64,000 bases of DNA from an uncultured delta proteobacterium (GTDB taxonomy: Bacteria > Desulfobacterota > RBG-13-43-22), in NCBI GenBank assembly GCA_963790475.1, contig CAWBOS010000010.1, positions 448,001 through 512,000 of the forward strand. The letters run 5' to 3'. A program made the translations under genes and the position numbers. Under the pieces are notes generated by a model. It saw nothing but the letters and a program-made list of their open reading frames with translations. It did not search any database and was not told the origin of the DNA. Below are positions 17,364 to 37,849 of this stretch, in pieces (the first letter of the stretch is position 1; every line of letters starts with the position of its first letter).

Positions 17364-17409
17364 AGAAAGAAGGTGACGGGTTTCGGGTGGCGAGTGAGGG
17401 GTTAACAAT

Positions 17410-17540
17410 GATGAACTCGAAAAAAATCGTCACTCCGGTGAAAACCGGGGTCCAGAGGTTTTTATGTGGTAAAATTTCCTGGATTCCGACTTTCGTCGGA
17501 ATGACGAAAATGGACTGAAGCAATTTATTCTAAGTCCATT
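17410..17540. repeat. Family B REP-like doublet in a MITE-like shell, nested in a family C heptamer pair (17371-17401/17570-17587)
   Basis: CGTCACTCCGGTGAAAACCGGGGTCCAG ... CTGGATTCCGACTTTCGTCGGAATGACG; outer GATGAACTCG end. Confidence 0.75.
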
Positions 17541-18848: not shown

Positions 18849-19285
18849 AGCTTGCACCAAGACTGCTGAAGAGCTCAGGAAGCGGTCGGTTAGCAGAGGA
18901 CAACGATGGTCAATGCCCTAGATCCGGTTATGAAAGGCGACAAAAAGATCATCCCTGAATTTTTGTGGCTGGCCTGGATGGTTTCCTGGACAGCCTGGCA
19001 GCGACACTCAAGAGATTTTTCTCCAACAAAGGACCAACAAAGGAACGGTAGGAGATAAAAAGGGGGCTTAGTCATTTCGGCTTGCCTTGAATAAGGGGCG
19101 TTATTCATAGACGGAGGAGGGGGTAGAAATATAAGAAGTCTGGTCTGTCGAAGGGGGAGGATTCTTTATGAAAACCTATTCCCGGGAGAATAATTCCAAA
19201 AAGGGAAAAAACCAAAGGGTTTTTATGTAAATTGAATTTGGCGACCTCACAAGTCCGCAAAAAACATAGTCATACGATACAACGA

Positions 19286-19910
19286 GTCGAGTAGCCCGGG
19301 GGAATTTCACCCCCAGGCCCTCACAGGTCCGGACGTGACAGTCTCCCGTCCTCCGGCTCCTATCATCCAGTTGCCTTTTATGGCGACCTTTCCTTACCTC
19401 TTGGTTCCTCCCATCGCTGGTTGACCAAAAGGCAAGGACAGATGATCCAACCCCTTCGCTCCATCCCCATTACAGAGATTTCAACACTACTACGAGTTGG
19501 TCCGTCCCTGTGCCCCGCATCGGTACTCTCATTCCTGTTGGGTCCTCCACTTGAATTTCTCCCTTATCATCGGGACGACAGGTTCCCACGTTCCACACCA
19601 GAGCCTAAATCAGGTTCGCGCCACCTTTATGCCGGATGCCGCCCAAGCAGTAAACAGGTTCCCCCTGAACTTATCCTGGAGATCAGTAAGCCCCCCAGTT
19701 TTGACATCATCCATTCATTTCGACACCTCAGAAGTAGTTCGCTTGCGCTCGCCTCCCTGATCCTTACCTGACAGGGTCGTGGCCCTGCCTCTTCCTTAAC
19801 GCCCACCACCATGGCCCTTTACCATCGCAGCTTAAGGTGGTTTGAAGCCTGCTCCTGCAAGCCGACTTCGAGGGACCTCCCCTCATCTCTTGTGCAGCTT
19901 CGTGGCACAC
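19286..19910 (-). mobile_element. ORF-less group II intron (IIB, class D-like)
   Basis: 5' end GTGTGC at 19910; domain V GAGCCGGAGGACGGGAGACTGTCACGTCCGGACC; domain VI GGGGGTGAAATTCCCC..GCTACTCGAC; no RT ORF; the joined flanks match an empty site at 33353-33369. Confidence 0.9.
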
Positions 19911-19932
19911 TTATCGATTTGAAATATGCATT

Positions 19933-19962
19933 AAAAAAGCAGGGCCAAATGACCCTGCCTTT
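19933..19962 (-). terminator. Terminator-like hairpin after the PEP-CTERM gene (also part of a family D site)
   Basis: GCAGGGTC-ATTT-GGCCCTGC-TTTTTT; homolog at 33314-33343. Confidence 0.7.
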
Positions 19963-19985
19963 GAGGAAAGAGATGATTGATATAA

Positions 19986-20921
19986 TTATTTTCTAAACTT
20001 CCTCCTGAATCCTACAAGCCCAAGCAAACCAGACCCAAGAAGCAGCATGGTGGCGGGTTCTGTGACAGGCTCTGAGTTATACGAAGGGGATTGATAAGTT
20101 TGCATATTGAAATATTCTTCTGATAACGTAACAGGTTCTCCATATCCAAGTCCGTATGCTTCCATACCTTTATATTTATCATAATTATAATTATCTGCTA
20201 GATAGGCAACCAAATTATTGAAGGTAAAACCACCACCATTTAGTTCACCTAAAAATTTATCAATTTCCCTACCAAAATATGAAACTCCAGAAAAATCATA
20301 AGCACTACCAGAAGTTTTACTAGCAGATGTAAGTATTGAGATGTTATCAAGCTGGCTTAGTTCGTCAATAAAACCACCTGAATTGCAAGAATCAATAATA
20401 ACAATTTTATTCTTATTAGAAGGAAAATAACTTAGATATTGTTTTAGCTCTTTATCAGTAATTCCATAGTTATTGCTTACGCCGTCGCTACCTATAAATA
20501 CTGTATAGTCAGGATTTTCAGAATTTACTTCCAATCCGTGTCCAGTAATATAAAACAAAAAATTTTCTGATTTTGTAAAACTATCGGTCATTAAATTAGC
20601 ATAATTTTGAAAAGTATATCCAATGTTACCTGAAGTTTCATTTAAATTTCCACCAGGTCCACTCTTTCCTGTTTGATATAATGTAAAGCCATAAAAATTA
20701 TCATTATAATATCCAAATTTCCTTGCAAGAACTTCCGCAACTGTTGCTCCTTTATAATCTCGACCTGTATCGTCATTTATCCCAACAAACAATGCAAGCG
20801 TTTTACTGTCATAAAGATTATTATTTGCGGGGTGATCAAAATATATTTCTGAAGAAAAAGCTCCTGACACCAAAAGCAGATAAATCAAAATTCCAAAAAT
20901 AAAGTGTCTCAAAAGTCTCAT
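19986..20921 (-). CDS. Caspase/legumain-like (clan CD) peptidase with PEP-CTERM sorting signal
   Basis: Signal peptide; YITGHG and IIDSCNSG dyad; C-terminus PVTEPATMLLLGSGLLGLVGFRRKFRK; AT-rich body. Confidence 0.8.
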   Translation of the reverse strand: MRLLRHFIFGILIYLLLVSGAFSSEIYFDHPANNNLYDSKTLALFVGINDDTGRDYKGATVAEVLARKFGYYNDNFYGFTLYQTGKSGPGGNLNETSGNIGYTFQNYANLMTDSFTKSENFLFYITGHGLEVNSENPDYTVFIGSDGVSNNYGITDKELKQYLSYFPSNKNKIVIIDSCNSGGFIDELSQLDNISILTSASKTSGSAYDFSGVSYFGREIDKFLGELNGGGFTFNNLVAYLADNYNYDKYKGMEAYGLGYGEPVTLSEEYFNMQTYQSPSYNSEPVTEPATMLLLGSGLLGLVGFRRKFRK

Positions 20922-20968
20922 TTTATATCTCCTTAAACATTAATATTAATTCATTAAAACTGAAGCTA

Positions 20969-21070
20969 CTATGCTGCGTCCGTGAAGACGGCGTCCGCAA
21001 ATGCTGACGTCGACATGATGACCATGAAAAGCATTACAATAAAAAAACAATTGCGTCTTAAAGAACCCAT
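20969..21070 (-). pseudogene. Signal-peptide-only stub of a secreted protein
   Basis: RBS AAGGAG; MGSLRRNCFFIVMLFMVIMSTSAFA-DAVFTDAA*. Confidence 0.45.
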
Positions 21071-21154
21071 AAAATCTCCTTTCTCAATGTCATCCACGCC
21101 TTGCTGAAAAGTGTGGAAGAGTCGCAAAGCCCTTTCATTTAATCCTTATACTTA

Positions 21155-21374
21155 TGCAACTGCTAAGCCAAAAATATAACAATCAGTAATTATTATATAA
21201 TTATAGATATGTCAAGGATAAAAGTTCCCAAATCTGTAAAGTAATCTGACAATAAAACGGGATACCGCAAGTCATAAAAATAGGCACATAGAAAAATATC
21301 AAGTTATTTCGATGAGAAACAAAGAAATAGGCCGGATTTGGGGAGAGATTAAAATTATGTAAAGAATCCCGACA
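21155..21374 (-). promoter_or_regulatory. Sigma54 promoter with two TGT-N11-ACA enhancer sites
   Basis: TGGCTTAGCAGTTGCA (21170-21155, GG-N10-GC); TGTAAAGTAATCTGACA 21235-21251; TGTAAAGAATCCCGACA 21358-21374. Confidence 0.75.
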
Positions 21375-21496
21375 TTTTTACAAAAAACCCAAATGGCCTG
21401 GTCCGAGAGAGTCTTGTTAAGGGATGCTAAAAGAAAAAGTGTTTTTTTTGTGCTCAGAGATTAAAAAAGATTTTTATTGTGTTATGCAACCTCATT

Positions 21497-21655
21497 AACG
21501 ATTATCGATTGAACTCTTGTCTTTTTTCAAAAATGAAAATCTGAAGAGTTCAGGTCAGGAAGAACCCATCAAGTTTCCTCGAAAATTACCCCAAAACCCC
21601 TAATTCAATGATTGCACCTTCTCATGTTTGCTATGTACTGGAGAATTGTGAGATG
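21497..21655 (-). repeat. Family D site, near-full unit
   Basis: TCCAG-N10-ACATGAGAAGGTGCAA-N44-GGGTTCTTCCTGA...ATTTTTGAAAAAAGACAAGAGTTCAATCGATAATCGTT. Confidence 0.7.
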
Positions 21656-21725
21656 TCCCTCTCCTTGCAGGACAAAAATTCCGATCTGATGCTTGATGAA
21701 AACCTTAAAAAAGCCACAGTCAGGT

Positions 21726-22487
21726 TCACCATAGACCGGGAATCAGGGCCCTTCGCTCCGGGGGATAATCAGGAAAATATCCCTTGTACCAACGATGATG
21801 TGCCCGAGCCCGTGGGATTAAATTTGCCATCGTCCACAAGGCAAAGGAAAATCCTGCCAGAGACCAGGTTGCGATCGCCCAGCCAATCCAAATGAGAATT
21901 TCACCCAGGTAATTCGGGCAAGAGATAAAACGGAACATTCCCTTGTCGGTGATTTTATAATTTTTTTCCCCCGGCTGACGTAGATTTCTAAGTTCCATAT
22001 CCGCCTGACGGTTCAATACAAAACCGATGAGGAATAAGGCGACTCCGCAAATCAACCGGGGATCCCTGAGCCATTCGTTGCCGTAGCCTTCAGAAAACGA
22101 AAACAGATAACTTCCATTCAAATAGGCATTTGCCGAGTTGAAAATTAATCCGAGACTCATCACCAGAACCGGCATTCGTTTTACCGTAGTCCGCAAAGTA
22201 AACGGGTAAATAAAAGCGCGGTGGATGTAGTGGGCTTCCCACAGGCAGAAAAAGAGGAATAGAACCGGAGTTTTTTCATTGCCGCCAACCACAAAACACA
22301 CGGCAAACAATACCGGTGATATGGATTCCATGACCACCCATCCTATCCTGTCGGACACGGTTGCCCCCCAACCCCTGCGGGCGTAACGTCCATAGGGTGC
22401 TGCTATATAAAAAAGGGAAATGAAAATAATCAGCGCCAGAACGACCCATCCTACAACCAATCCATTATAAAATGTCAGGCCGGTCAT
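21726..22487 (-). CDS. 3-oxo-5-alpha-steroid 4-dehydrogenase (SRD5A) family membrane reductase
   Basis: APYGRY, HYIHRAFIYP, LRNLR, FISCPNYLGEILIW, RARAHHRWY. Confidence 0.85.
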   Translation of the reverse strand: MTGLTFYNGLVVGWVVLALIIFISLFYIAAPYGRYARRGWGATVSDRIGWVVMESISPVLFAVCFVVGGNEKTPVLFLFFCLWEAHYIHRAFIYPFTLRTTVKRMPVLVMSLGLIFNSANAYLNGSYLFSFSEGYGNEWLRDPRLICGVALFLIGFVLNRQADMELRNLRQPGEKNYKITDKGMFRFISCPNYLGEILIWIGWAIATWSLAGFSFALWTMANLIPRARAHHRWYKGYFPDYPPERRALIPGLW

Positions 22488-22505
22488 CCGATATCTTTCA
22501 GTATT

Positions 22506-23486
22506 TCAGGGAAGCCGGCCATTCGACTTGAACCAATTAAGGGTATCAGCAATGGTTTCTTTGAGCGGCCGCGGATGATAACCGAGCTCTGTGCTCGCTT
22601 TGGCATGGCTGACCTTCTTATTTCCCCGGAGGGCAGCCAAAGACACTTTGGTAAAAAGGGGCCGTTTCCCGGAAAAGTGAGCCAGGCGGGTTGCAATCGG
22701 GGCCCCGATATCGGCCAGCCATAAAGGGCAGGTCCATCGGGGTGGAGTTATCTCCAAGATCTCTTTCAGCATGAACGCCAGATCAGGCATCGAGGCCCAG
22801 TGTCCTGACAGAAGATATTTCGAGCCCCGCGTGGCCAGTTCTTCGGCTCTCATCGCCCCATAGGCGACATCGCGCGCGTCAACCCAGTCAAATCCGCCAT
22901 TGACCAGGGCGGGGAACTTCCCACAGGCCATGGATAACAGGACCTCACCGAAATGGGAAGGATAATAGTCATAGGGGCCGATCACGCCGGTCGGATTGAT
23001 AATTACGGCGTTGAGTCCTCTTTCCATCCCTCTTAGAATTTCTTTTTCTCCTCCGGCCTTGGAAATATCGTAAGGAGGGGCACCTTCCGAGGAGACCGGC
23101 GGCCGGGTCTCATCCACGGGACTATCTAAAGGTTCCTGTTCCAGGGCGTGGATCGAACTGAAATGAATCAGCCGACTCACGCCGTGGCGAAGACAGGCTT
23201 CCACCACATTCTTGGTGCCGGCCACATTGATTGACTGGCACTTTTCCCTCTCATTCATTCGCAGAGATATATATCCCGCCAGATGATAAACGACATCAAC
23301 CCCTTCAAAGGCCCTAAGAAGGGAATCAAGGTCACAGGTATTCCCTTTAACGATATCTACATCCAATCCTTCAAAGGCCTGTCCATTCAGGTGCTGCAGC
23401 ACACTCACCTTTCTACCCTCAGCCATCAATGCTCGGATCAGATTGGCTCCGATATGCCCGCTGGCACCGGTTACTATTGTTTTCAT
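22506..23486 (-). CDS. NAD-dependent epimerase/dehydratase (dihydroflavonol-reductase/HpnA-like SDR)
   Basis: TGASGHIG, YDISK, NPTGVIGP, VDARDVA. Confidence 0.85.
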   Translation of the reverse strand: MKTIVTGASGHIGANLIRALMAEGRKVSVLQHLNGQAFEGLDVDIVKGNTCDLDSLLRAFEGVDVVYHLAGYISLRMNEREKCQSINVAGTKNVVEACLRHGVSRLIHFSSIHALEQEPLDSPVDETRPPVSSEGAPPYDISKAGGEKEILRGMERGLNAVIINPTGVIGPYDYYPSHFGEVLLSMACGKFPALVNGGFDWVDARDVAYGAMRAEELATRGSKYLLSGHWASMPDLAFMLKEILEITPPRWTCPLWLADIGAPIATRLAHFSGKRPLFTKVSLAALRGNKKVSHAKASTELGYHPRPLKETIADTLNWFKSNGRLP

Positions 23487-23602
23487 AAAATTTCAGAAAT
23501 TTCAATTAGGTTTGTTAGATCCTGGCAATGATCATCCGAGAATTTATCTCTAACATTCTATCCAAGGCCCCCTATGACCCCCCCAATTTCAAATATATTT
23601 GG

Positions 23603-24682
23603 TTAGGTTTTGAAGCAATGCAGAAAGTCATAGATCACCTTTCCCGTATCGGCCCAGTTGGGATGCTTAACAAAAGTCCGGCGTGCGGCCAAGCTCATCC
23701 CCAGGAGGCCTTCCCGGTTTTCGGCCAGCTCATGAATATGGGAGCTTAAGGTTTCTGCATCCCCGGGTGCGACGAGAAAGCCGTTGAGACCATGGGTCAC
23801 GATTTCGTCTGCTCCTCCCGCCTGCGAGGCGATAGCCGGCAGACCAAAGCCCATCCCCTCCAGGTAGACGATCCCAAAACCCTCCCATGACGAGGGGACT
23901 ACAAGAAGTTGACTCTGCCTAAATAGCTGTTCCAGGTCCGGATCAGAAACTTCACCCACAAAGGATATCCGGTCACCAAGCTGCGCCTCGCGGATTTGCC
24001 TATGAATAGCACTAACATAACCTTGGTCCCAGGCCGGGTTCCCGACCACGGTGAGACGCCAGAGCCTGGTTTCGATCGTTGAAAGGGCGGAAATCACGGT
24101 ATGGAGAGATTTTCGGGGAATGAGAGCCCCGAGAAAAAGAAGTTCGAGAGGGCCAGGCCTGGTTGCCCTTAAGACCAGGTCCTTTTCCGTGAGTGTGCTT
24201 GAGAATCGGTCTCCCGCCGGGTAGGCCACTACCCACGGCTTATCGTTCCCGATCAGCCGGAGGGCTGCCTGAGCGGTGTTCCGGCTGTTGCAAACCAATC
24301 CATCGACAATAGAGAAAAATCGTTTTTCGATAATCCGGTAAAATCGGTTTTTCCTCCTTGGGTGTTCCTCTTGGCAGCGAAGATGATGAACCACGGTAAT
24401 AATCGGAACCGGGAGGGTGCGGCGCAGGCGGTTGTTGAGCAGGAAGAACGAAGGGTGGACCAGTTCATCTTCCAGGACCAGGTCCGGGGAGAAGTCCTTT
24501 AGCTTAGGCAAAAAGGAAAACGAAATATTAAAGATCAGGGACCGCCCATAGCGTCTCCAAGGCACGGAGAAGACCTCGACCGTATCCCCCTGTTCCCGGA
24601 GATAGCGGACGAACATGCGGTCATAGAGAAATCCACCGGTCATCGTCTCGATGTCGCCGTAGACGATAAGTCCGATTCTCAC
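23603..24682 (-). CDS. Glycosyltransferase family 4
   Basis: TGGFLYDR N-terminus; PSSWEGFGIVYLEGM. Confidence 0.88.
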   Translation of the reverse strand: MRIGLIVYGDIETMTGGFLYDRMFVRYLREQGDTVEVFSVPWRRYGRSLIFNISFSFLPKLKDFSPDLVLEDELVHPSFFLLNNRLRRTLPVPIITVVHHLRCQEEHPRRKNRFYRIIEKRFFSIVDGLVCNSRNTAQAALRLIGNDKPWVVAYPAGDRFSSTLTEKDLVLRATRPGPLELLFLGALIPRKSLHTVISALSTIETRLWRLTVVGNPAWDQGYVSAIHRQIREAQLGDRISFVGEVSDPDLEQLFRQSQLLVVPSSWEGFGIVYLEGMGFGLPAIASQAGGADEIVTHGLNGFLVAPGDAETLSSHIHELAENREGLLGMSLAARRTFVKHPNWADTGKVIYDFLHCFKT

Positions 24683-25059
24683 GAGAGTACTTCGGAGTAA
24701 GAGGCCCAGGCCTGATTATTCTCCCAGATTTTTACCGTAAGTGCTGCCAGGTGGGGCAAAGGGCCCTCCTGTCGGATATCGGTCGAGATAATTCGGGCCA
24801 AGTGCTCGATACTGGGATTGAGCCCGTCAAACTGGGACAAATCATTGAGGAGCCTGTCCTGGTAAAAGGTCAAGATTTTTTCCAATCTCGTTTCCAGGTC
24901 AACAATGTCAATCAAATATCCGTGGGTGTCCAGCCCTGGCCCCGAGACCTCCACCTCAATGCGGTATTGATGGGCATGGGCGAAATTCTCAGGCCCCCAG
25001 TTCCCTCCGAAGAGGAAGTGCCGGGCAACAAACTCACGCTGAATGGCAACGCTGTACAT
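24679..25059 (-). CDS. 6-pyruvoyl-tetrahydropterin synthase (COG0720) family protein
   Basis: FVARH...HAHQYRIEV...GYLIDI...NPSIE...IWEN; lacks the QueD catalytic Cys. Confidence 0.82.
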   Translation of the reverse strand: MYSVAIQREFVARHFLFGGNWGPENFAHAHQYRIEVEVSGPGLDTHGYLIDIVDLETRLEKILTFYQDRLLNDLSQFDGLNPSIEHLARIISTDIRQEGPLPHLAALTVKIWENNQAWASYSEVLS

Positions 25060-25071
25060 AGTCAGATTCTT

Positions 25072-26094
25072 TCAATAGGCCAAAACAACCTGGAGGCAGT
25101 CTCCGGGGTTTTCATCCAACAGGGAATAGGCTTCTCCCGCCTCGGAAAAGGGAAAGGAGTGGGTAATGAGACCTGAAGGCTTAGCCTCCGCCAGAAGGCG
25201 CCAGGCGAGCCCAAGAAGCCGTTTCTTGGTCCACCTCTCCTCCAAGCTGGGATCAATGCTGCTCACTTGGCTGCTCATGATCCGGATCCGGCTTCTGTGG
25301 AAAGACCCTCCCAGGTGCAGGGTAGCGTCTTTCGTGCCATACCAGGAGCCGATTACAATCCTGCCGGCGAATCCGGTAATGGCGATGGCCTGATCCAGGG
25401 CTTCCGGGTTTCCCGATATCTCATAGGTCAGATCTGCCCCCCGATACTCTCCCAGCCCCTGAAGAAGGGAGATAATCTCCTGGTCTGGGCACCCGGCCGG
25501 GTCGATACTTTTGTCGGCCCCTATTTGTTCGGAAGCTTTACGCCTGGCCGGAAAGCGGTCGAGAGTGAGGAGGCAGGCCAAAGGCATCCGGGATAGGATG
25601 GCCGTGACCAGGAGCCCCACAACTCCCTGTCCAAAAACGGCCACCTGTTCCCCTACCGATGGGTTCCCATCCAGGAGAAGGGTTAAGGCGGTCTCCATAT
25701 TGGGGAGAAAAACCGCATCCGGGATCGCCAGGTTGGAAGGAACAGGGTAAAGCTCGGTCACCTTGGCTGAAAAATAATTCTGATGAGGTTGGAAGGCAAA
25801 AACTTTCCTCCCCTGCCACAGAGGATCTACTCCGGGACCCAGGGAGACCACCTCGCCAACCGCGGCATATCCGTACTTCATGGGAAAGGAGAAGGTCCCC
25901 TCGAGGGCTTCGATGGTGGCGTCCACTGCCAGGCCCGACGGGGTTTGGCCCCGATAGAGAAGAAGTTCTGTTCCCGCACTGATGGCTGAAACAATTGTTT
26001 TGACGGTTACCTCGGCCTCGGAAGGGCCGGAGAGTTCTTCCTCTCTGATTCCCACTTGATAAGGGGCCTCAAACCAGAGGGCCTGTCTCTTCAT
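25072..26094 (-). CDS. Zinc-binding alcohol dehydrogenase family oxidoreductase
   Basis: SAISAGTE, GYAAVG, GQGVVG, FHRSRIRIMSSQV. Confidence 0.85.
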   Translation of the reverse strand: MKRQALWFEAPYQVGIREEELSGPSEAEVTVKTIVSAISAGTELLLYRGQTPSGLAVDATIEALEGTFSFPMKYGYAAVGEVVSLGPGVDPLWQGRKVFAFQPHQNYFSAKVTELYPVPSNLAIPDAVFLPNMETALTLLLDGNPSVGEQVAVFGQGVVGLLVTAILSRMPLACLLTLDRFPARRKASEQIGADKSIDPAGCPDQEIISLLQGLGEYRGADLTYEISGNPEALDQAIAITGFAGRIVIGSWYGTKDATLHLGGSFHRSRIRIMSSQVSSIDPSLEERWTKKRLLGLAWRLLAEAKPSGLITHSFPFSEAGEAYSLLDENPGDCLQVVLAY

Positions 26095-26813
26095 TCCCCA
26101 GCCCAATCCGGATCGGCCCGGAGCATCATATCGTTTCCAACCTTCTCATAACAAATGTTGACAAAACGGGGGAAACGGTTCGGCTCGACATCGGCAATGG
26201 CATCAATGATACGAATGCCTCCCACCAGAAGGGGGGTTATGCTGACCACGATCTGGTTCACTGCTTTGGCCAGGAGAAAGCTCTTGATCACCTCGGCGCC
26301 GCCCTCGACCATTATACTGAGAATACCCATCTGGCCCAGATGAGTGAGCAGAGTCCTAATATCGATGCGCCCATCTGGGCCGGAGGGAAGACGAAAGACC
26401 TTGGCTCCGCAGGCTTCCAGGGACCGCTCCCGGTCCGCACCAGCGCTATCGGTGGTAAAGATCCAAGGCTTACGACCGTTACAGTCTAAAAGCCTGGCGT
26501 AGGGAGGAAACCTGAGCCGGCTGTCCAGGATCAGGGGCTGGGGATCTCGACCTTCCACCATTCTGACCGTAAGCCGGGGATCATCGGCCAGCACCGAACC
26601 AATACCAACGAGGATGGCATCATGCATGGCCCGAAGATTGTGGGTGAGAACGAGGGACTCGGCGCAGCTTATGGCCAGAGGATATCCCGGTCGAAGAGCA
26701 ATGCTCCCGTCAAGACTTTGAGCGTAGCTTATAGTCACGAAGGGGAGCCCTGATTCTTTGGTGAAGTTTTTCCCGAGTTCGAGTTTGTGTTGTACTTCGC
26801 TGAGTAGGGTCAT
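26091..26813 (-). CDS. RibD C-terminal reductase domain protein (no deaminase domain)
   Basis: PFVTISYAQSLDGSIA, DAILVGIG..LADDPRLTVR, MVEGGA. Confidence 0.85.
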   Translation of the reverse strand: MTLLSEVQHKLELGKNFTKESGLPFVTISYAQSLDGSIALRPGYPLAISCAESLVLTHNLRAMHDAILVGIGSVLADDPRLTVRMVEGRDPQPLILDSRLRFPPYARLLDCNGRKPWIFTTDSAGADRERSLEACGAKVFRLPSGPDGRIDIRTLLTHLGQMGILSIMVEGGAEVIKSFLLAKAVNQIVVSITPLLVGGIRIIDAIADVEPNRFPRFVNICYEKVGNDMMLRADPDWAGE

Positions 26814-27096
26814 TTTCGGCTGCCTAATCCCTTGGCCGTGAAGGCCGGTTTTTTGACGAGTGTCCCCGGGCAACGGAAAATAGGCTAAAAGACTTTAATA
26901 CCAGTGTGCAATAAGTTCAATTGATCGGAGAAACGACCGCCCACCCCGGGTTCCCATAAGAAAAGGCGGTTTACCCTGACCAGTCCTGCCGGTCCTGCCA
27001 CTTTCAAAGAACTTACTTGGTGATCAGAAAAGTATAAAACAAGGAAAAGACATGGTCAAGGAGAAAACAAGGAGAAAACAAGTAAGATTCCAAACC

Positions 27097-27125
27097 TTGA
27101 CCTTTCCCCTCTTTTTTTCTATAAT
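27097..27125 (+). promoter_or_regulatory. Sigma70 promoter
   Basis: TTGACC-17 nt-TATAAT. Confidence 0.6.
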
Positions 27126-27315
27126 AAAAACTGGTCTGGTGAACCGGGGCCTTTTATTAATAAGCAGATTGAAACAGCGGGCCTGCATTGCCGAAACACT
27201 GACTATGTTTTTTCTTTAAACATTGGGCATGCTGCAATTTTCCATAAATTTTTACACTAACGAGGTGAAGATTGAGGGTAGGGGTTGTCTATAATAACTT
27301 GGAAAGGACTTACCA

Positions 27316-28773: not shown

Positions 28774-28961
28774 ACTTGATAAATAGTATCAATTTAGCTT
28801 TTTGGGAAAAGTTGTTCTAATAATTGTCTGATTGGTCATGAGTTTCAAAAACCTAAAGTGTTTCGATAAATATTATTAAGTTCGCTTCATTATTCCTATC
28901 GAACTTTTAACCGGCTGAACGGTTACGATATTCGGGAAGTCTCTTTTCTGATTTCTTTTAG

Positions 28962-29245
28962 GTAAACCCCCGGCTCTGCCGGAGGATCCTAAAGTTTGAC
29001 CATTCCGGGATTATGGTTTTTTAATAGCGACAACGAGTAACAGATGTTTTCCATTTGAAGACCAAACTTTGCCTGGATCGTCATTCCGGAGAAATCCGGA
29101 ATCTAGAGATTCTAAAAGGGTTAGGAAAAGCTCTGGACCCCGGCTTTCGCCGGGGAGACGGCTACAAAGGTTTTAGATTTTTTTTGTGAGCCCCTTTAAG
29201 GGGCTAAAATATTCAAGCCTCCGGCTCTGCCGGAGGTGGGTGACT
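28962..29245 (+). mobile_element. IS200/IS605-like non-autonomous remnant containing a family B doublet (29079-29160)
   Basis: Direct-oriented subterminal hairpins CCCCGGCTCTGCCGGAGG and CCTCCGGCTCTGCCGGAGG; no transposase between them. Confidence 0.6.
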
Positions 29246-29260
29246 TTCAAAGGAAGTGGA

Positions 29261-29971
29261 ATGGTAACAATGATAACGTGTGAAAGAGCGATCAGGGAAG
29301 AATTCAAAGATTCAGACCAAATATTGACCACAGACCAGGTCATTGATCAAATTCAAAAAAAATATCCTGGAAAATGGAAAGAGATCACCATTAGGACTCA
29401 CCTTATTGGCTGTAGTATCAACCATAAGTCCAGTAAGTTTTATCCAACTTTTCAGAAATTTCTCTATACCGTTGAACCGGGAAAAATGAGACTTTTCGAT
29501 TTGGAAAAAGACGATAAATTTAAGAAACTATCCCCCAGGTTGAAGATACAATTCGTGTCAGAAGAGATGATCCCAACTGAAGTAAAAGCCCACGAAGCAA
29601 AACCAACCATTCTAAAAAATTTGCGGAAAAATCTAAGAAGGGATATCGCCCAGCTTGAACCCGGGCTAAAACTTTTCCAGGACCAGGGTCTTGATAGCTT
29701 AATGGAAGCCACCAAAATCGATATCCTCGCCAAGGATGTTAATGATAACCTCGTCGTAATTAAGCTCAAGGGGGATATTGCCCAGATCAACACTCTTAGC
29801 CAGATATTAAACTCTATAGCTTCAATCAAAAATGAGCTTGGTGAGACAAACATCAGAGGCCTAATCGTCGCCAAAGATTTTGACAATCAAATAGTCCTGG
29901 CGTCAAGAGAAGTGCCGGATGTTTCTCTTTTTAAATATAAGATGAAATTTGATTTCGAAGTAGTCAATTGA
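29261..29971 (+). CDS. NucS/DUF91-like PD-(D/E)XK protein with extra N-terminal domain
   Basis: LEPGLKL...KIDILAKDVNDNLVVIKLK...Q...RGLIVA.DF. Confidence 0.7.
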   Translation: MVTMITCERAIREEFKDSDQILTTDQVIDQIQKKYPGKWKEITIRTHLIGCSINHKSSKFYPTFQKFLYTVEPGKMRLFDLEKDDKFKKLSPRLKIQFVSEEMIPTEVKAHEAKPTILKNLRKNLRRDIAQLEPGLKLFQDQGLDSLMEATKIDILAKDVNDNLVVIKLKGDIAQINTLSQILNSIASIKNELGETNIRGLIVAKDFDNQIVLASREVPDVSLFKYKMKFDFEVVN

Positions 29972-30142
29972 CGTTTTCCGGTACAACCATAGAAGTGCCA
30001 TAATCCCACCCAGACAATATGTTCCCCGCTAAAAAGTACTGGGATTAGTCGTTCAGTGCCCGACTCTTCCAGGCTAATTTAAGAATTAAAAAGTAAAAGA
30101 TTCGGGAGCTGGGGGATTTTTTTTCAAAATAAAAACGGACCA

Positions 30143-30290
30143 CTGCCGGAAAAGGATTTACTCAAACCAAGAGAAGGGGCGAAATATTTTTCCGCATCAA
30201 CCAGGACCATCTATTCTGGATTGAAATAGGAAAGCTGGAAGCCGTGGAAATTGGACCCAAACTTATCCGGGTTCGGAGGTCTGCCACTTA
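30143..30290 (+). pseudogene. Excisionase-like HTH remnant
   Basis: LPEKDLLKPREGAKYFSASTRTIY/fs/WIEIGKLEAVEIGPKLIRV. Confidence 0.6.
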
Positions 30291-30648
30291 AAAAGTGTCG
30301 AGGCCTGGGTATTAACAGGAGTCCTCCAAACAGGTAAGGAAAAGAAGCGCTTGGACTTGAGCGGAAGGCTGGTTCAAGGTATTAGAGGAGAGAGAATATA
30401 GCGTGAATTTAGATCGTGGCTTAGAATGGATTTTAGGAGGCCGGGGGGAATATACCTTCCGGCTTTAACTGCTGCTATCTTTTTAAGGAGGCTCTGCCTG
30501 CCGATGCCTCCTGGATCAACCTCGGCAGGCAGATATGCGAGATCAAGGAATAGGCCATGCTGGCCGGACTGGCTGCCCTCCCGCCGCTGGGGCTGCTCCT
30601 ATTTCGAACCCGATATTTTAGTTCGCTGCAGGGAAAGGTAGGGAAGAA

Positions 30649-30712
30649 GTGCTTCCTGAAGTCCTCTAAATCCAATTTTTGAAAAAAGACAAGAGTTCAA
30701 ATCGTAATCGTC
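30649..30712 (+). repeat. Family D site, partial
   Basis: 26-bp exact match (30675-30700) to the reverse complement of 21509-21534, then ATCGTAATCGTC. Confidence 0.75.
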
Positions 30713-31157
30713 GATAAAAGGGTCTTGATATTTCTTGGCCTTAGAAACGGCAAGAGATCTCAAGGCTTTCAAAAAACAAGTAGTATGCCATCGTTCTCCT
30801 AAGAGACTAACTCGATTAATCCCTAAAAAAACCTTTAGAAAAGACCTCTTCCTTCTTGCCGGGGCGATGAAGGGTTTATGAAGTTATTGACAGTCTCATG
30901 ACAAAATGTCGACCGATTTCTATTCCAAATCTTTTGACTGAGCCAAGTCCTGGGATGCTTTCCCTTGGAATTATCCGAATCCGATAAGATCAGCCAGGCC
31001 TTGGATGGATTGACCTATATCTTGTAGCGAATATAAAAAAACATACCATATGTTGAGTTTTATCTTGACTTTTTTAGATTTTAACAGTAAAAACTTTATG
31101 TGGAAAAAGTATATTGGCAACCAACGGGAAGAGCCTTTTTGAAACAGAAAAATAACC

Positions 31158-31711
31158 ATGAGCACCCAGGAACAGAAAACCATTCTTCTCGTTGAAGACG
31201 AGATTCTTATCGAGGTGGTCGAGAAGGAGAGGATCAAGAGTTTCGGCTACAAAGTCATCACAGCGGATTCCGGTGAAGAGGCGATTAACATTGCGATAGG
31301 TAATAAAAGAATTAATCTCGTGCTCATGGATATTAATCTTGGTCGAGGAATCGACGGGCTGGAAGCCGCCAAACAAATCCCAAGAAGAAAAATATGCCCA
31401 TCGTTTTTCTAACCAGCCACTCTGAAAAAGAATATGTGGATAAATTAAAGGAAATTACCTGTTATGGGTGCGTGTTCAAGGCCTCCGGAGACTTTGTTCT
31501 TCGAGCCTCCATCGAAACTGCCTTGGACCTTTTTGAGGTAAACAAAAATTTACAATTAAAGATGGACTTGATGCGGGAGAGCCAGGGAAAATACTGGAAT
31601 GTATTTGCCCCTGATAGTGACGCCCTTTTTCTCGTTGATAAGGGAATGGTTGAGGCAGTTATCAAAACAAAAGGTGCATCTCGAATAAAATCGGAAGATT
31701 CACCTATTTAA
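31158..31711 (+). pseudogene. Response regulator receiver protein, frameshifted/truncated
   Basis: ILLVEDE...VLMDINL then PIVFLT...K in a second frame. Confidence 0.75.
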
Positions 31712-31726
31712 TTAATGGGGATTAAA

Positions 31727-32854
31727 ATGAAAATTGCAGTCATAGGGTGCGGCTATCGAGGACCCAATTTGGTTAGAAATTTTTTCCAATTAAATAAGGT
31801 CGATGAATTATTTTGCTGTGATCTGGATCCAGAGAAGCTGGATCGGCTAAAAAACCTTTACCCATCCGTTAAAAGAATACAGGATTACAAGGAATTTCTA
31901 AAAATGCCGGATCTGGACGGGGTGGTTATTTCCACTCCGGTTTACAGCCATTACCCCTTGGCCAAGGATTTTCTGGAGAATGGCCAACATGTGATGGTGG
32001 AAAAACCCCTGACCCATTCCCAGGAAAGCAGCCTGGAGTTGATCAAGATAGCCGAAGAAAAGAAACGAATCCTGATGGTGGGCCACACCTTTGAATATAC
32101 AGCCGCTGTAAACAAGATTAAAGAGATCATCGAAAGTGGGGAATTGGGGAAGATACTCTATGTTAGTTGTACCCATACAAACTTGGGACTCCTTCAAAAG
32201 GATATCAATGTGGTTTGGGATCTTGCCCCCCACGATATATCCATCATTCTTTATGTCCTGGGCGAATTTCCGGTTTCGGTCAACTGCCAAGGGAAAGCGC
32301 ATTATAAATCTGATATTGAAGATGTGGCGATCACCTCGCTCAACTTCAATAATGGCTTAATAGCCTTTATACATAACAGTTGGCTTGATCCGAAAAAAAT
32401 CCGGGAGACAACAATTGTCGGAACAAGGAAGATGTTGGTTTACGATGACATGAAATTGCAGGAAAAGATAAAGATATATGACAAGGGGTTGGAAATACCC
32501 CCTTATTATGATACCTTTGCTGAGTTCCATTTCGCCTACCGGTCAGGAGATACTTATAGCCCAAGAATTGACGAATATGAACCCCTCAGGAAACAGTGTG
32601 ATACCTTTTTGGAATGTATAAAAGAAGAGATTCATCCTCCATCCGACGGAAATGACGGATTGAGGGTGGTAGCCATCCTGGAAGCATCCTCCAACTCATT
32701 AAAGCAAGCGGGTAAGGAGGTGCCCTTGCGACTGCCCAAAGAAAAAAAAGCCATCCAGACAAATGGAAATGGATACCCTGTTTTTTTAAGGGTCCCCCTA
32801 GAGAATAAGATATTGACCCCGTTAAGGGCGCTGGGAAAAAAGAGGGTTGCTTAG
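31727..32854 (+). CDS. Gfo/Idh/MocA family oxidoreductase
   Basis: IAVIGCGY.G, VEKP, WDLAPHD. Confidence 0.88.
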   Translation: MKIAVIGCGYRGPNLVRNFFQLNKVDELFCCDLDPEKLDRLKNLYPSVKRIQDYKEFLKMPDLDGVVISTPVYSHYPLAKDFLENGQHVMVEKPLTHSQESSLELIKIAEEKKRILMVGHTFEYTAAVNKIKEIIESGELGKILYVSCTHTNLGLLQKDINVVWDLAPHDISIILYVLGEFPVSVNCQGKAHYKSDIEDVAITSLNFNNGLIAFIHNSWLDPKKIRETTIVGTRKMLVYDDMKLQEKIKIYDKGLEIPPYYDTFAEFHFAYRSGDTYSPRIDEYEPLRKQCDTFLECIKEEIHPPSDGNDGLRVVAILEASSNSLKQAGKEVPLRLPKEKKAIQTNGNGYPVFLRVPLENKILTPLRALGKKRVA

Positions 32855-33039
32855 CCGAAGTTTTCTTCTATAACACTAAATATGAAATTGGTGAAAACAT
32901 AAAGGCATATGATTTTATGGATCTTTTTGGTTTAAAAATTGGAGGCGGACAAAAAAGCTTTTATTAAAAGAAGCAGAGAAGAGAGGGTCTGCTCTTTTTA
33001 AGGTTTAATATCTATTAACCAGATTGAGAGAAATCAGAA

Positions 33040-33232
33040 ATGATCTCATATGAATTTTACAGGAGTAACCCGGTAACAAAAATAGAAGAGTTGCTTGGAG
33101 TTCTGGAGGAAAGAAGAAAAGAATCCTTCCAGAATTACCCGGGAATCAGTCATGGGTTGGGCAGAAAAAGTTTTTGGTCAAGATGTAGGTGTTAAAGACA
33201 TTTATTTTATTCCAGTAAATATTAATAAATAG
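33040..33232 (+). pseudogene. Small hypothetical protein, frameshifted
   Basis: MISYEFY...LLGVLEERRK/fs/PSRITRESVMGWAEKVFG..IYFIPV*. Confidence 0.4.
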
Positions 33233-33313
33233 ACAAGAAATACTTGAGACCCACTCCGTTCTTCCTTACAAGCACGAGGTTAAAACGTAAATCAATATCT
33301 GGTAAGCTGGACG

Positions 33314-33409
33314 AAAGTAGGGTCAGAAATGGCCCTGCTTTTTCTATGCCCCTTCAAACGATAATCGTTAAATCTCCGAACCATTCCAGAACAAGACTTG
33401 TAGGTGTAA
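33314..33409 (+). repeat. Family D site (hairpin-core-N25-GACTTGTAGGTG); intron-free homolog of the intron target
   Basis: AGGGTCAGAAATGGCCCTGCTTTTT..ATGC...TTCAAACGATAATCGTT-N25-GACTTGTAGGTGTAA. Confidence 0.75.
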
Positions 33410-33599
33410 TTTAAGTATTGCTTATGCTTAATAAATTCGAAATTAAATGAACAACCTTCTGGAGGGAATGGCCCAGATATTGGGCTCGGTCGGAACGGGG
33501 TCGGGCCATGTTAACTGACTGATATAATATAATATGAAATCAAGTTAGGCCTTTAAAATGGGTCTATATTGAGCTTTTTATGGGCAAAAAGAGCAATAT

Positions 33600-33700
33600 A
33601 GAAAACTAATGGCTGTGGATTGAGGGATACTTGAATGCCGGGAAACAAACCCGGGAAGATGAATGGACGGGAAGCATTACTGTCGGAAGTAAAATACTTT
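33600..33700 (+). pseudogene. Possible Y1/RAYT-like transposase C-terminal fragment
   Basis: WIEGYLNAGKQTREDEWTGSITVGSK resembles the W..S.AVGS tail I associate with such transposases (recall only). Confidence 0.35.
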
Positions 33701-33770
33701 ACTTGGCTGGTCCCCAATTCCATCATCGTTAGGAGTGTGAAAGCGATTATATTTGGCAGGAGGAAATGAT

Positions 33771-34358
33771 ATGAGTCTGAATAACGAAGTCCTAAACTGC
33801 ATTCATGAACGAAGGAGTACGCGTCGATTTACTGACCAACAAATATCATCTGAACAACTGGATGCTCTGCTTGATGCCGCAATATGGGCGCCTAGCGGCG
33901 GCAACAATCAAAGTTGGTTGTTTACGGCTATTCAGAAAAAAGATGTGCTTCTCCATTTAAATGAGCTTGTTCGTGAAGGATTTCAACATTGGATTCCCGA
34001 TGACGATTACCCCGGAAAGCTAGGTATGAAGAAGCTTTCACAAAAGAAAGGCTATAACTTCTATCACAAAGCACCAACGCTCATTATTGCCTCCAATAAA
34101 CCGAATTACGAAAATGCAATGGCAGATTGCGCCCTGGCGCTCCAGAATATTTTCCTTGCGGCTCAGTCTCTGGGGTTGGGAAGTTGTTATATCAACCAAC
34201 TTCATTGGCTTCGGGATGATCCGCCTGTCCGCGCGTATCTGCTTGAATTGGGCATCCCAAAGGAGCATACGATCTGCTCTTCCGCGGCTATCGGTTTTAT
34301 AGGTAAGGAATCGACCGCGCCTATTCGTAAAGAAGGCACGATACACATTATTCGATAA
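33771..34358 (+). CDS. Nitroreductase family protein
   Basis: RRSTRRF, WAPSGGNNQSW, LAAQSLGLGSC. Confidence 0.9.
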   Translation: MSLNNEVLNCIHERRSTRRFTDQQISSEQLDALLDAAIWAPSGGNNQSWLFTAIQKKDVLLHLNELVREGFQHWIPDDDYPGKLGMKKLSQKKGYNFYHKAPTLIIASNKPNYENAMADCALALQNIFLAAQSLGLGSCYINQLHWLRDDPPVRAYLLELGIPKEHTICSSAAIGFIGKESTAPIRKEGTIHIIR

Positions 34359-34400
34359 AGTAAAGTCGTATCGGAATGGTGAGAAAAAAAAGAGCTCTCT

Positions 34401-34563
34401 TTCAATCGGAAATCATCAACTTTTTGTTCAGACTAATCCCCACATTTGTAGGTGTAAGGGGTTAATTGGGAGGAGAAGGCGATTTTTATTGTAATTTAGA
34501 GGGGTTCTTCCTGAACTCCAAAACCTCCATTATGAAAAAAATGCAAGTGTTTAAAACATAATT
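34401..34563 (+). repeat. Family D site, full unit
   Basis: TTCAATCGGAAATCATC..TTCAG-N10-ACATTTGTAGGTGTAA-N44-GGGTTCTTCCTGAACTC..TGAAAAAAATGCAAGTGTTTAAAACATAAT. Confidence 0.7.
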
Positions 34564-34591
34564 CTATTTGCCTCCCTTTTTTGTTCTAATG

Positions 34592-35998
34592 TTACCATTT
34601 TGGTTTCTGTTGAAAACTCTGATCCGCTCCATAAGTGGTTCCTGCACTGTTGGTGGCCACTAGACGGTAATGATAAACGGTATAAAATCTCAGTCCGGTT
34701 ATCCTGGCCGAAGCAGCAACATAGCCGGTGCCACTGCCGGCTGAGGTAACCACTGTGGCAAACCCGTAGGAAGTGGTCCGCCCCCACTGAAAGATATAGG
34801 TCGTTGATAAGCCGTTGGGATTAACCGTTCCATTCAAAGTGGCGGAATTAAAAATCACAGACGAGGCCGCGCCGGTATTGGCCACCGGTGCCTTTGTGCT
34901 AATCGCAGAGAAGGTTGCTGTCACATTGAGATTCGAGTTCATTGTTACCCGGCAGGTGGACAATGTTCCAGAACAGGCCCCTGACCACCCTCCAAAAGCA
35001 GAGTTGGCATCAGGAATAGCTGTTAAGGTGACTCCCGTACCAGAAGCGAAAGTGGTCCCTACCGGATTAGTGGAGACATTGCCATTACCTGTCCCATTTT
35101 TGCTAACAGTGACGGTATAAGTTGCTGAGGAAATAAGCGAAAAAGAAGCTGCTATGGTGTGATTGGCGCCTACGGAAGAAAAGGTGTAGGAAGTAATCGA
35201 TCCTTTTGAGACACCGTCCACATTCACATTGGCAACCTTGTAACCGGAATTGGGGGTAATAGTGAATGTCTGTCCGCCCCCTGCCGGAACAGAAACCTGT
35301 CCGGAAGGGGAAATAGTCCCGCCAGATCCGGCCGAAGAAGTGATAATGTAAGCGGCCGAACCGTTTTCACTCACCGTAAACACATTCCCGGCGACAGTCA
35401 GACTGTCTGAGCGGGTAATGCCGGTGTTGGGAGAAACCGTATACCTCATTGTTCCACTTCCAATACCGGACCCCGAATTAATCGTTATCCAGGAGGCAGA
35501 AGCCGAAGTCCCCCAATTACAACCAGCCTGAGTAGTGATGGACACACTTCCCGACCCACCGGAGGTGGGAAAAGAGGCACTTGAAGGGGATATGGCGAAG
35601 GTGCAGGAAGGGACTGTATAAATTACCTCATTGGAGAACCCGCTCTCTAACCCCTGGGCATTATAAGCAGTAGCCGCAATATAGTAAGTCGGTCCCGAAG
35701 TCAGGCCATTTAAAATGTAGGTGGTTACGTTACCCACATCTATTTTATTCTGGTAGTTTCCTGATTGCGTCCCGGAATAGATCTTATAACCGGCCAAGTC
35801 CGATTCGCTGTTGGGATCCCAAGTGAGTGTGACCTGGGCACAATGACCTGGCGGGCCAAGATTAGAAAAAAGTATGGTCAGGACTAAGAAAGAAAGAAAT
35901 TTGGGGGAAAAAATAGCGCCAAGCGATTTGGAACAGCCAGAGAAATTCTTTTTCAAAAGTTTGAGACTATCATTCCTAAATACGGCAAAAAAAGACAT
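34592..35998 (-). CDS. Secreted Fn3/BACON/InlB-B-repeat surface protein (start uncertain)
   Basis: VTLTWDPNSESDLAGYKIY..ESGFSNEV Fn3; S/T/G-rich beta repeats; FGGWSGAC; C-terminal Fn3-like domain. Confidence 0.8.
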   Translation of the reverse strand: MSFFAVFRNDSLKLLKKNFSGCSKSLGAIFSPKFLSFLVLTILFSNLGPPGHCAQVTLTWDPNSESDLAGYKIYSGTQSGNYQNKIDVGNVTTYILNGLTSGPTYYIAATAYNAQGLESGFSNEVIYTVPSCTFAISPSSASFPTSGGSGSVSITTQAGCNWGTSASASWITINSGSGIGSGTMRYTVSPNTGITRSDSLTVAGNVFTVSENGSAAYIITSSAGSGGTISPSGQVSVPAGGGQTFTITPNSGYKVANVNVDGVSKGSITSYTFSSVGANHTIAASFSLISSATYTVTVSKNGTGNGNVSTNPVGTTFASGTGVTLTAIPDANSAFGGWSGACSGTLSTCRVTMNSNLNVTATFSAISTKAPVANTGAASSVIFNSATLNGTVNPNGLSTTYIFQWGRTTSYGFATVVTSAGSGTGYVAASARITGLRFYTVYHYRLVATNSAGTTYGADQSFQQKPKW

Positions 35999-36012
35999 AA
36001 CATCTTTTCGTT

Positions 36013-36029
36013 ACGCAAATACTATACCA
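36013..36029 (-). promoter_or_regulatory. Sigma54 promoter
   Basis: TGGTATAGTATTTGCG (GG-N10-GC) upstream of the Fn3 gene. Confidence 0.55.
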
Positions 36030-36181
36030 GATTTTATTAATTGTAAATCTCATTGAAATAATAGGAATTAATTTAAAATAAAAAAAAATAAAAGGAACAA
36101 ATAACACTTTTTATCTACAGGAATGGATAAAATTTGAGGGAAAAATCATACATATTAATGGGTAGGCCAACCATTTCTTCC

Positions 36182-36237
36182 ATCTATCTGTAATTTTCAA
36201 TTTTTAGTCCAGCTCCCAAGCAACATTTGTAGGTGAA
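36182..36237 (+). repeat. Family D site, degenerate core
   Basis: TCCAG-N10-ACATTTGTAGGTG, same spacing as 34427-34454. Confidence 0.6.
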
Positions 36238-36702: not shown

Positions 36703-36779
36703 TGGTGCCCCCGGCGAGACTTGAACTCACGGCCTACAGATTAGGAATCTGCCGCTCTATCCACCTGAGCTACGGGGGC
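36703..36779 (-). tRNA. tRNA-Arg(CCT)
   Basis: GCCCCCG acceptor stem, anticodon loop TTCCTAA, GTTCAA T-loop, encoded CCA. Confidence 0.95.
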
Positions 36780-36824: not shown

Positions 36825-36918
36825 TAGAATCCAGGAGTCAGAATCCAGAATCCAGAATAACCCCTCAACCCTTTACTGCTGTTTCTCATTCTGAATTCTG
36901 GCTTCTGGATTCCAGAAT
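36825..36918. repeat. Inverted pair of 7-nt tandem repeats (family C, AGAATCC/TCTGGAT)
   Basis: agaatcc aggagtc agaatcc agaatcc ... tctgaat tctggct tctggat. Confidence 0.7.
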
Positions 36919-37812: not shown

Positions 37813-37849
37813 AATTGCCAAACCTTCAAAAATCAGCCAAGAGTTTTTG

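Follow-up and report, generated by a model that had tools for sequence, protein, structure and literature searches.

A dispersed site family that probably serves as a landing pad of a two-recombinase element and as the exchange point of gene cassettes in an uncultured delta proteobacterium

In the metagenome-assembled genome (MAG) of an uncultured delta proteobacterium (GCA_963790475.1, here G000; estimated contamination 9.68%), a stretch of 64,000 nucleotides (contig C10, positions 448001-512000; "the window") carries unrelated accessory genes bracketed by multi-box sites that we call family D. What purpose do these sites serve, and how did the genes between them come together? An earlier note on this DNA had proposed a cassette system with crossover inside a conserved core. 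We compared the window with the rest of G000 (contigs C6, C10, C12, C13 and C15 appear below), with 20 genomes of the same family and with 20 genomes of other families, using one query each for family D and for the recombinase described below. The results make it probable that family D is the landing pad of a compact mobile element, and that cassettes reaching from promoter to terminator are shuffled at two 7-mers within it, in a variable island beside a tRNA-Arg gene.

The multi-box sites listed in the earlier note are all present, as found by reading every copy. Box B (ACATTTGTAGGTGTAA), with at most 3 mismatches allowed, matched the window four times against 0.30 expected, a number reached in 0 of 100 shuffles; three of these matches, at 33394, 34442 and 36223, belong to sites listed there. 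Box D, a 21-mer, had two exact matches in the window against 0.02 expected. The fixed spacings that had been claimed also proved exact: the spacer called N44 is 44 nt long in both full units (34458-34501 and 21611-21568, counted by hand), and the core ends 25 nt ahead of the start of box B at 33369/33394, 34417/34442 and 19281/19256. The claim of repeated cores stood only in part. With at most 3 mismatches, the 17-nt core matched the window just twice (21497 on the minus strand and 33353 on the plus strand; 0.31 expected, and two matches were reached in 5 of 100 shuffles), so that the remaining "core" copies must be more diverged. In addition, a repeat search paired 21498-21554 with 30655-30711 (57 nt, 79% complementary). 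What had been described as a single unit is better read as three parts, namely siteL (the 3′ end of a cassette), the linker R1, and siteR (the 5′ end of the next cassette).

Evidence on the breakpoints came from a self-comparison of 17-40 kb of the window with the whole genome (blastn), followed by pairwise alignments and counts of identical letters over 40 nt on each side of a junction. Each of three modules that are adjacent in the window has a counterpart elsewhere in the genome. Module A (30651-33406) recurs at C10:824299-822114 on the minus strand (96.8-100% identical in three pieces), module B (33381-34454) at C15:11274-10201 on the minus strand (99.3%), and module C (34446-35874) at C13:262366-263802 (93.6%). 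The identity between the copies starts or stops at GTAGGTG, which lies inside box B, or at CTTCCTG, which lies inside box C; it does so within 0-2 nt of a 7-mer at five of the six module ends, and the common 7-mer matches in all seven positions at all five junctions. At the right end of module B, 40/40 letters are identical inside the junction and 9/40 outside; the corresponding numbers are 40/40 and 24/40 at its left end, 40/40 and 16/40 at the right end of A, 39/40 and 12/40 at the left end of A, and 31/40 and 23/40 at the left end of C. These alignments indicate that module B has GTAGGTG at both ends; module A is bounded by CTTCCTG on the left and by GTAGGTG on the right. In a fourth pair, C6:359632-359112 and C12:1016027-1016546, one end falls inside GTAGGTG, where the C12 copy is 7 nt short. 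Thus, the sites do coincide with recombination breakpoints, as had been inferred, though not within the core: we rejected the core TTCAATCGATAATCGTT as the crossover point, since the breakpoints between the paralogues lie 28-35 nt away from it, at GTAGGTG and CTTCCTG.

Module B also appears in further contexts in assembled contigs from runs with other sample codes, where X2 bears the study code of the main run, X1, and X3 comes from a different study. An X2 contig of 1111 nt covers 33400-34454 and has 53 unlike letters ahead of 33400, an X3 contig starts its match at 33398 after 41 unlike letters, and another contig ends at 34454. In the relative G013, the stretch 33398-33696 is present at 95% identity behind a different siteL.

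A candidate for the responsible enzyme adjoins the left side of module A's second copy. It is an element of 2109-2110 bp with three copies in G000, located by blastn and by reading (C13:165909-168017; C13:39577-41686, whose first gene contains a stop; C10:824299-826407). It comprises two overlapping open reading frames (ORFs) of 379 and 295 aa, with no further ORF of at least 80 aa between its terminal repeats. Both products match Pfam Phage_integrase over the full length; they come closest to XerC/XerD/XerA, below the NCBIfam cut-offs (145-202 bits vs 330-335). A tyrosine recombinase system does accompany the sites, in line with the recombination inferred in the earlier note; it is encoded elsewhere in the genome than in the window. 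The element ends in perfect 10-bp inverted repeats, CTATACGTAC...GTACGTATAG, with CTTCCTG on both sides of each copy, and the right flank of every G000 copy is a siteR. Given these repeats and flanks, a circular joint would read repeat-CTTCCTG-repeat, an order that is classic for the core sites of tyrosine recombinases. A scan of a collection of contigs from many genomes for repeat-N7-repeat joints gave 11 loci; most of these resembled unrelated palindromes, and GTAGGTG or CTTCCTG occurred in none of them.

The recombinase query found matches in 7 of the 20 same-family relatives and in none of the 20 genomes of other families, and the elements fall into two subfamilies. In subfamily 1, CTTCCTG or its complement abuts the repeat in all eight loci read, two of which are G000 copies. 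In subfamily 2 (55% identical), three of the four loci read (one in G010, two in G013) are flanked at both ends, or at the single visible end, by CACCTAC, the reverse complement of GTAGGTG; one flank there is siteL in reverse complement, and the other is R1 or an alternative flank, R2. The subfamily 2 repeat ends in A instead of C, such that 9 of the 10 repeat bases are common to both subfamilies. Altogether, a 7-mer abuts the repeat in the three G000 copies and in 9 of the 10 relatives' loci read. Elements of this kind thus insert exactly at the 7-mers inside family D, one subfamily at CTTCCTG and the other at GTAGGTG, leaving a copy of the 7-mer on each side. Remnants extend the picture within G000. 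A subfamily 2 remnant abuts TAGTAGGTG at C15:13688, next to the second copy of module B, and repeat remnants of 8-9 nt lie beside family D 7-mers at C6:359106 and C15:131824, so that all six G000 copies and remnants are found at family D sites. Taken together, the module ends and the element flanks suggest that the two breakpoints of the window's modules correspond to the crossover sequences that two subfamilies within a single element family use.

A related arrangement was seen in a Desulfatiglandales MAG record (JAQYVK010000213.1, 4580-5004), where an element end is followed by CCAAGTG, a mini-element of ~50 bp and again CCAAGTG. The mini-element consists only of the two inverted repeats and represents a tandem insertion at a regenerated 7-mer, with yet another core sequence.

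The family is not confined to the window. Iterated nhmmer profiles run on the whole genome (E<=1e-3) yielded 25 copies of siteL, 33 of siteR and 5 of R1, the 52-nt linker that joins siteL to siteR; the counts are conservative, as some copies visible by eye were missed (e.g., siteL 34401-34454). In siteL, a terminator-like hairpin is followed by the core, ~28 nt and TTGTAGGTG; in siteR, CTTCCTG is followed by ~20 nt, a TTGAAA-like −35 and the core with a GATAAT-like −10. Among the relatives, a DNA search with a single family D copy found matches in 12 of 20 genomes of the same family and 0 of 20 of other families. The sites are clustered: 35 of the 58 have a neighbour at 0.3-15 kb, where 2000 random trials gave 13.2 on average and 27 at most, and neighbouring sites share a common strand. 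Eight same-strand pairs run from siteR to siteL over 0.8-2.9 kb, and their cargo is unrelated (a cyclase with DUF4881, PEP-CTERM proteins, a kinase with a response regulator, a TMEM260-like glycosyltransferase), which upholds the claim of direct-oriented sites around unrelated cargo. Under naive ORF calling, a same-strand ORF ends less than 100 nt before many siteL copies, and the usual distance from a siteR to the next ORF start is 100-450 nt.

The signals within the sites fit such cassette borders. With DNA parameters, the siteL hairpins fold well (−7.7 kcal/mol, z = −4.5 for 19962->19935; −8.2 kcal/mol, z = −2.5 for 33314-33341); these hairpins are absent from the list of a simple terminator scan. 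On the minus strand, siteR at 21530-21501 reads TTGAAA-18-GATAAT, scores 10/12 and is one of the four top-scoring promoter-like matches over 18 kb; it is the only siteR in that scan, whose total is near chance (33 matches vs 25.5 expected from shuffles). The profile alignment reveals a dyad around the −35 in many siteR copies. R1 as a structured element was rejected: its DNA folds no better than shuffles (z = 0.5 and 1.6), and only the small dyad at CTTCCTG forms. The alignments of siteL, siteR and R1 show no terminal inverted repeats, which sets family D apart from miniature inverted-repeat transposable elements and repetitive extragenic palindromes (MITE/REP type); a RAYT gene was not searched for.

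If the crossover does not lie in the core, what is the core? Judging from its sequence, it behaves as the −10 part of the promoter-like siteR (TTGAAA-18-GATAAT) and, at the same time, as the homing site of a group II intron. The intron-split site that had been reported at 19962-19911/19285-19244 indeed harbours between its halves an ORF-less group II intron (19286-19910, minus strand; Rfam RF01999 109.7 bits, RF00029 41.6 bits), the only match in an Rfam scan of 19-36 kb. A second full copy occupies another siteL core at C10:1529208-1529829. Both are inserted between ..GTAA or ..ATAA and TCGTT of the siteL core with a hairpin ~24 nt upstream, the arrangement of terminator-targeting group II introns. 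With 625 nt, the intron is too short for an ORF of reverse transcriptase size; having no such gene inside, it would need a reverse transcriptase in trans. In an X3 contig the 5′ end of the intron lies in a siteR core, and in G013 a different intron ends in a siteL core. Partial intron copies were seen at C12:1501417-1501820 and C15:220494-220803.

The part of the window that holds the sites differs between genomes. In G009 and G011, the flanking genes follow those of the window as far as ~18.75 kb and then from ~36.66 kb on, at the tRNA-Arg gene, and the DNA between these common flanks (4.1 kb in G009, ~31 kb in G011) is unrelated to that of the window. Such replacement between conserved flanks indicates that the 17.9 kb from 18.76 to 36.66 kb of the window form a variable island. 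Its right edge is tRNA-Arg(CCT) at 36703-36779 on the minus strand (ARAGORN; synteny with G009 and G011); at the left edge, the self-blast revealed no direct repeat of a tRNA fragment. The island holds two arrays that read outward from a divergent point at 26873/27316, with a siteL at each end.

The leftward array, on the minus strand, ends in the 3′ part of a siteL (19244-19285, the exon 2 side of the intron-split site; read directly, with a layout that fits the profile alignment), in which a degenerate 7-mer, GTGAGGT (19250->19244), forms the outer end of the array. The intron follows at 19286-19910 between ..TCGATAA and TCGTT, and then 19911-19962, which holds the 5′ half of the core and the terminator-like hairpin (19962->19935, DNA fold), directly 3′ of the cargo gene (19986-20921). 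The latter encodes a PEP-CTERM protein (PF07589, 8.8e-07) with a weak peptidase C13 match (PF01650, 3.2e-05). The full junction unit at 21497-21655, read directly and supported by box D matches, comprises a degenerate siteL, an R1-like linker and siteR; its 7-mers are GAAGGTG (21621->21615) and CTTCCTG (21562->21556), and the promoter scan placed its −35 TTGAAA and −10 GATAAT at 21530->21501.

On the plus strand, the rightward array includes a broken, excisionase-like helix-turn-helix remnant with an in-frame stop (30143-30290; a resemblance judged by eye). At 30600-30712, direct reading and the breakpoint alignment show a degenerate siteL core, a shortened linker, CTTCCTG (30652-30658) and siteR with box D at 30675-30695 and the core at 30696-30712. 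By blastn and Pfam, module A (30652-33406) contains a response-regulator fragment, a 105-aa ORF, a Gfo/Idh/MocA oxidoreductase gene and a siteL (33314-33406, read and found by the profile) with the hairpin at 33314-33341, the core at 33353-33369 and GTAGGTG at 33400-33406. Module B, bounded by blastn and alignments at 33400-34454 with GTAGGTG on both sides, consists of a leader, a nitroreductase gene (33753-34358) and its own siteL. The next junction (34448-34563) runs from GTAGGTG (34448-34454) through R1 (34455-34506) and CTTCCTG (34507-34513) into a siteR-like stretch that ends at 34563; this CTTCCTG is enclosed in a small dyad, GGGGTTC/GAACTCC, in the DNA fold. The part of module C common to C13 (34446-35874; blastn, Pfam) takes in R1, siteR' and most of the gene for an Fn3/InlB-repeat surface protein, which lies on the minus strand at 34592-35998 (Pfam). 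The terminal siteL of the array (36182-36235; read, with profile and box B matches) has GTAGGTG at 36229-36235.

The module copies differ in several respects. The second copy of module A (at C10:823641) has no counterpart of window positions 31310-32077 (768 bases), where the response-regulator fragment ends, the 105-aa ORF lies and the Gfo/Idh/MocA gene starts; one copy or the other carries a deletion or an insertion. In the window, the response regulator is just 84 aa long. A repeat of 190-226 bp (94-99% identical) occurs at or beside siteL terminator hairpins (C10:822397-822172, C12:1019094-1019319, C12:1185566-1185780, C13:58073-57880), and its insertion accounts for ~176 bases that module A has only in its second copy. 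The surface-protein copy at C13:262366-263802 is split into two ORFs (280 and 122 aa vs a single one of 468 aa in the window), and the Fn3/InlB-repeat protein copies differ in their first 41 codons.

Other repeats were encountered along the way. A conserved unit of ~140 nt at C15:12829-12690 (minus strand) starts at a consensus extended −10 (TGTGTATAAT) and has a terminator hairpin at its end. At E<=1e-3 there are 17 copies, including C13:14249-14108, C15:131941-132082 and C12:1010392-1010533; four of the 17 lie no more than 400 nt downstream of a siteR, and the single copy scanned had no match in Rfam. The unit may encode a small RNA or a leader peptide of ~16 aa (MEEF..P.FS.ER.GF). Further abundant short repeats at 17400-17510, 28951-29010, 29078-29163, 36825-36920 and 37839-37923 are unrelated to family D; each family numbers dozens of copies genome-wide (75-93% identical), some with hairpins.

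How might the cassettes move? In the mechanism that we propose, family D would be the junction of two cassettes, in which siteL forms the 3′ end of one, R1 or an alternative right flank comes next, and siteR forms the 5′ end of the other; GTAGGTG and CTTCCTG would serve as the overlap (crossover) sequences for site-specific recombination by the compact elements. We infer that the recombinases of these elements relocate the cassettes, and two routes could be envisaged: the enzymes may act in trans on pairs of 7-mers, or two inserted elements may take the intervening DNA along as one circle and later excise singly. Because every module that moves takes half a landing pad along, landing pads would multiply, and same-strand arrays of self-expressed cassettes would build up in variable islands.

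Several observations weigh against this mechanism. Exact 7-mers are present only in part of the sites (GTAGGTG in 13 of 25 siteL copies, CTTCCTG in 18 of 33 siteR copies), and the right end of module C (35874, inside the gene) as well as the left end of the C6/C12 pair lie away from any 7-mer. The bases beside the family D 7-mers are unlike the element's 10-bp repeats, except for short dyads, so that binding of the recombinases at cassette ends is a presumption. In G000, the subfamily that uses GTAGGTG is represented by a remnant, with no intact element, and only 4 of the 12 family D-positive relatives are also recombinase-positive (with single queries against incomplete MAGs). The islands of G009 and G011 at the common locus have no family D profile matches. 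The nitroreductase gene is identical to its counterparts in G005 (98%), G004 (96%) and G001 (89%) only over ~33729-34364, i.e., the ORF with ~25 nt before and 6 nt after it, which falls short of the 7-mers in three of the four relatives that have the gene. Hence, other exchange processes must also act, and this hints at a second, gene-sized one at the nitroreductase. Finally, the circles and empty junctions that the earlier note had suggested looking for were absent from the assembled contigs, where the sole joint was a 123-nt skip inside the Fn3 gene instead of a cassette-sized one, as well as from two metagenome pattern scans for circles, empty sites and contexts of module B (a 28-mer with 0 matches, a 19-mer with one, in unrelated sequence). 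As a separate observation on the nitroreductase gene, which is 89-98% identical across species of the genus, in G005, G004 and G001 it sits behind a different common leader (..GGATGTTTGATTGGTTGGATGGAGTTCTTGATTATCAAAG..).

Could family D be mainly cis-regulatory, a "mobile promoter" with an operator plus a terminator, on which the elements just land, the modules being duplicated by other means and the 7-mer ends being scars of insertion and excision? The sigma-70-like TTGAAA-18-GATAAT of siteR, the dyad at the −35 in many copies, the siteL hairpins that fold as terminators, and the nitroreductase ORF that moves between species without 7-mer ends would all suit this explanation, and near-identical promoters reused before unrelated genes are described (PMC3575422). 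Yet no regulator has been identified, and neither the position of five of the six module ends within 0-2 nt of the 7-mers nor the two GTAGGTG ends of module B at two loci, with the left end recurring in further contexts, would be explained; we regard this possibility as unlikely, though worth bearing in mind. Ordinary homologous or microhomology-mediated recombination between dispersed repeats, without a dedicated recombinase, is in our opinion rather improbable. The repeats are numerous and 60-90 nt long, in a genome rich in other repeat families; however, the flanks outside the junctions are only 9/40-24/40 identical, far below what RecA-type exchange needs, the common stretch is 7-9 nt, and one and the same 7-mer, which is also the flanking duplication of the recombinase element, occurs at four independent junctions.

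The common modules could also be assembly artefacts, as G000 is a MAG in which repeats of 1 kb can be mis-joined and two contexts may stem from two strains. Mis-joining, however, alters the pairing of flanks and not the positions at which a repeat begins and ends, matching ends were found in contigs of other runs and in the genome of another species, and the two-strain case would still leave the module in two places, so that we consider an artefact very improbable. Still harder to credit is an integron-like array of attC sites without an integrase ("CALIN"). The crossover consensus of attC is G|TTRRRY (R'). Such an array is called to mind by the small cassettes lined up on one strand, each with a conserved 3′ site, and by a group II intron that targets the site, but the breakpoints do not follow this consensus, each cassette has a promoter-like siteR, one gene is reversed, and no integron integrase was found: the best genome match to TIGR02249 has 105 bits against a cut-off of 265, and none of 25 weak tyrosine-recombinase matches exceeds its cut-off. 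The view that family D is a landing pad at which cassettes are exchanged thus appears to us the probable one. If true, it would explain the way in which a group of uncultured sediment bacteria assembles its variable genomic islands, and it implies that an apparent single multi-box "site" can be two cassette ends with two crossover points. The recombination system would be compact, with two proteins and a target seemingly set largely by a 7-bp match.

A full-text literature search, supplements excluded, returned no description of the two-ORF element or of family D sites, and known systems resemble them in part. According to a bioRxiv report (10.1101/2020.12.28.424599), Prochlorococcus tycheposons integrate at seven tRNA genes, and cargo elements build variable islands. 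The likeness is that repeated integration at fixed sites builds variable islands beside tRNA genes; unlike tycheposons, the system described here has a dedicated dispersed repeat family, recombinase-less cassettes and a separate 2.1-kb recombinase element. As described in PMC10214605, Tn554, strand-biased circularizing integrative elements (SE), GInt and RIT are transposon-like, with two or three tyrosine recombinases, target specificity and a joint sequence of 6-7 bp; they need TnpC, Srap with Tfp, GinC/GinD or a third recombinase, and are mostly far larger (median 15.7 kb for SE). In contrast, our element has just two ORFs in 2.1 kb, ends in perfect 10-bp repeats and is flanked left and right by one and the same 7-mer; it cannot be placed in any of the five groups of such transposons distinguished there. 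An element outside these groups would thereby gain a concrete genomic function.

With integrons, the arrays share the same-strand order of small unrelated cassettes, a 3′ recombination site for each, a tyrosine recombinase and a site targeted by a group II intron; some group II introns are known to target attC. The differences are no less evident. Family D has two alternating crossover 7-mers, with five sharp module ends at GTAGGTG or CTTCCTG; integron cassettes are mostly promoterless and depend on one platform promoter, whereas here each cassette has a promoter-like siteR and the Fn3 gene stands on the opposite strand; and the candidate recombinase pair resides on its own 2.1-kb mobile element, away from the array. 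The earlier statement that the sites match neither attC nor dif is borne out.

The plasmid counterpart of dif, pdif, is a 28-bp site with 11-bp XerC and XerD arms and a 6-bp spacer. According to PMC13141974, Acinetobacter plasmids carry discrete accessory modules with Xer-type sites in varied contexts, and insertion elements target these sites; further papers on dif modules are PMC10132070 and PMC6449649. Being bounded accessory modules in different contexts, they are the system that works most alike. Nevertheless, dif modules are found on plasmids, alternate in orientation and use the host's chromosomal XerC/XerD, whereas family D cassettes are chromosomal, directly oriented and probably served by a dedicated mobile recombinase pair; moreover, they have 7-bp cores, dyads of only 5-6 bp (e.g., GGGGTTC/GAACTCC), long conserved flanks and one-strand arrays. 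It is conceivable, and we put it forward tentatively, that there is a third bacterial cassette platform beside integrons and dif modules, with chromosomal arrays of self-expressed cassettes that have a promoter and a terminator each. An autonomous two-recombinase element in two subfamilies would supply the 7-bp overlaps that form the cassette borders. It would mobilise the recombinase-less cassettes in trans, and the 7-mer that it carries would set the target, because subfamilies with 9 of 10 repeat bases in common use different 7-mers.

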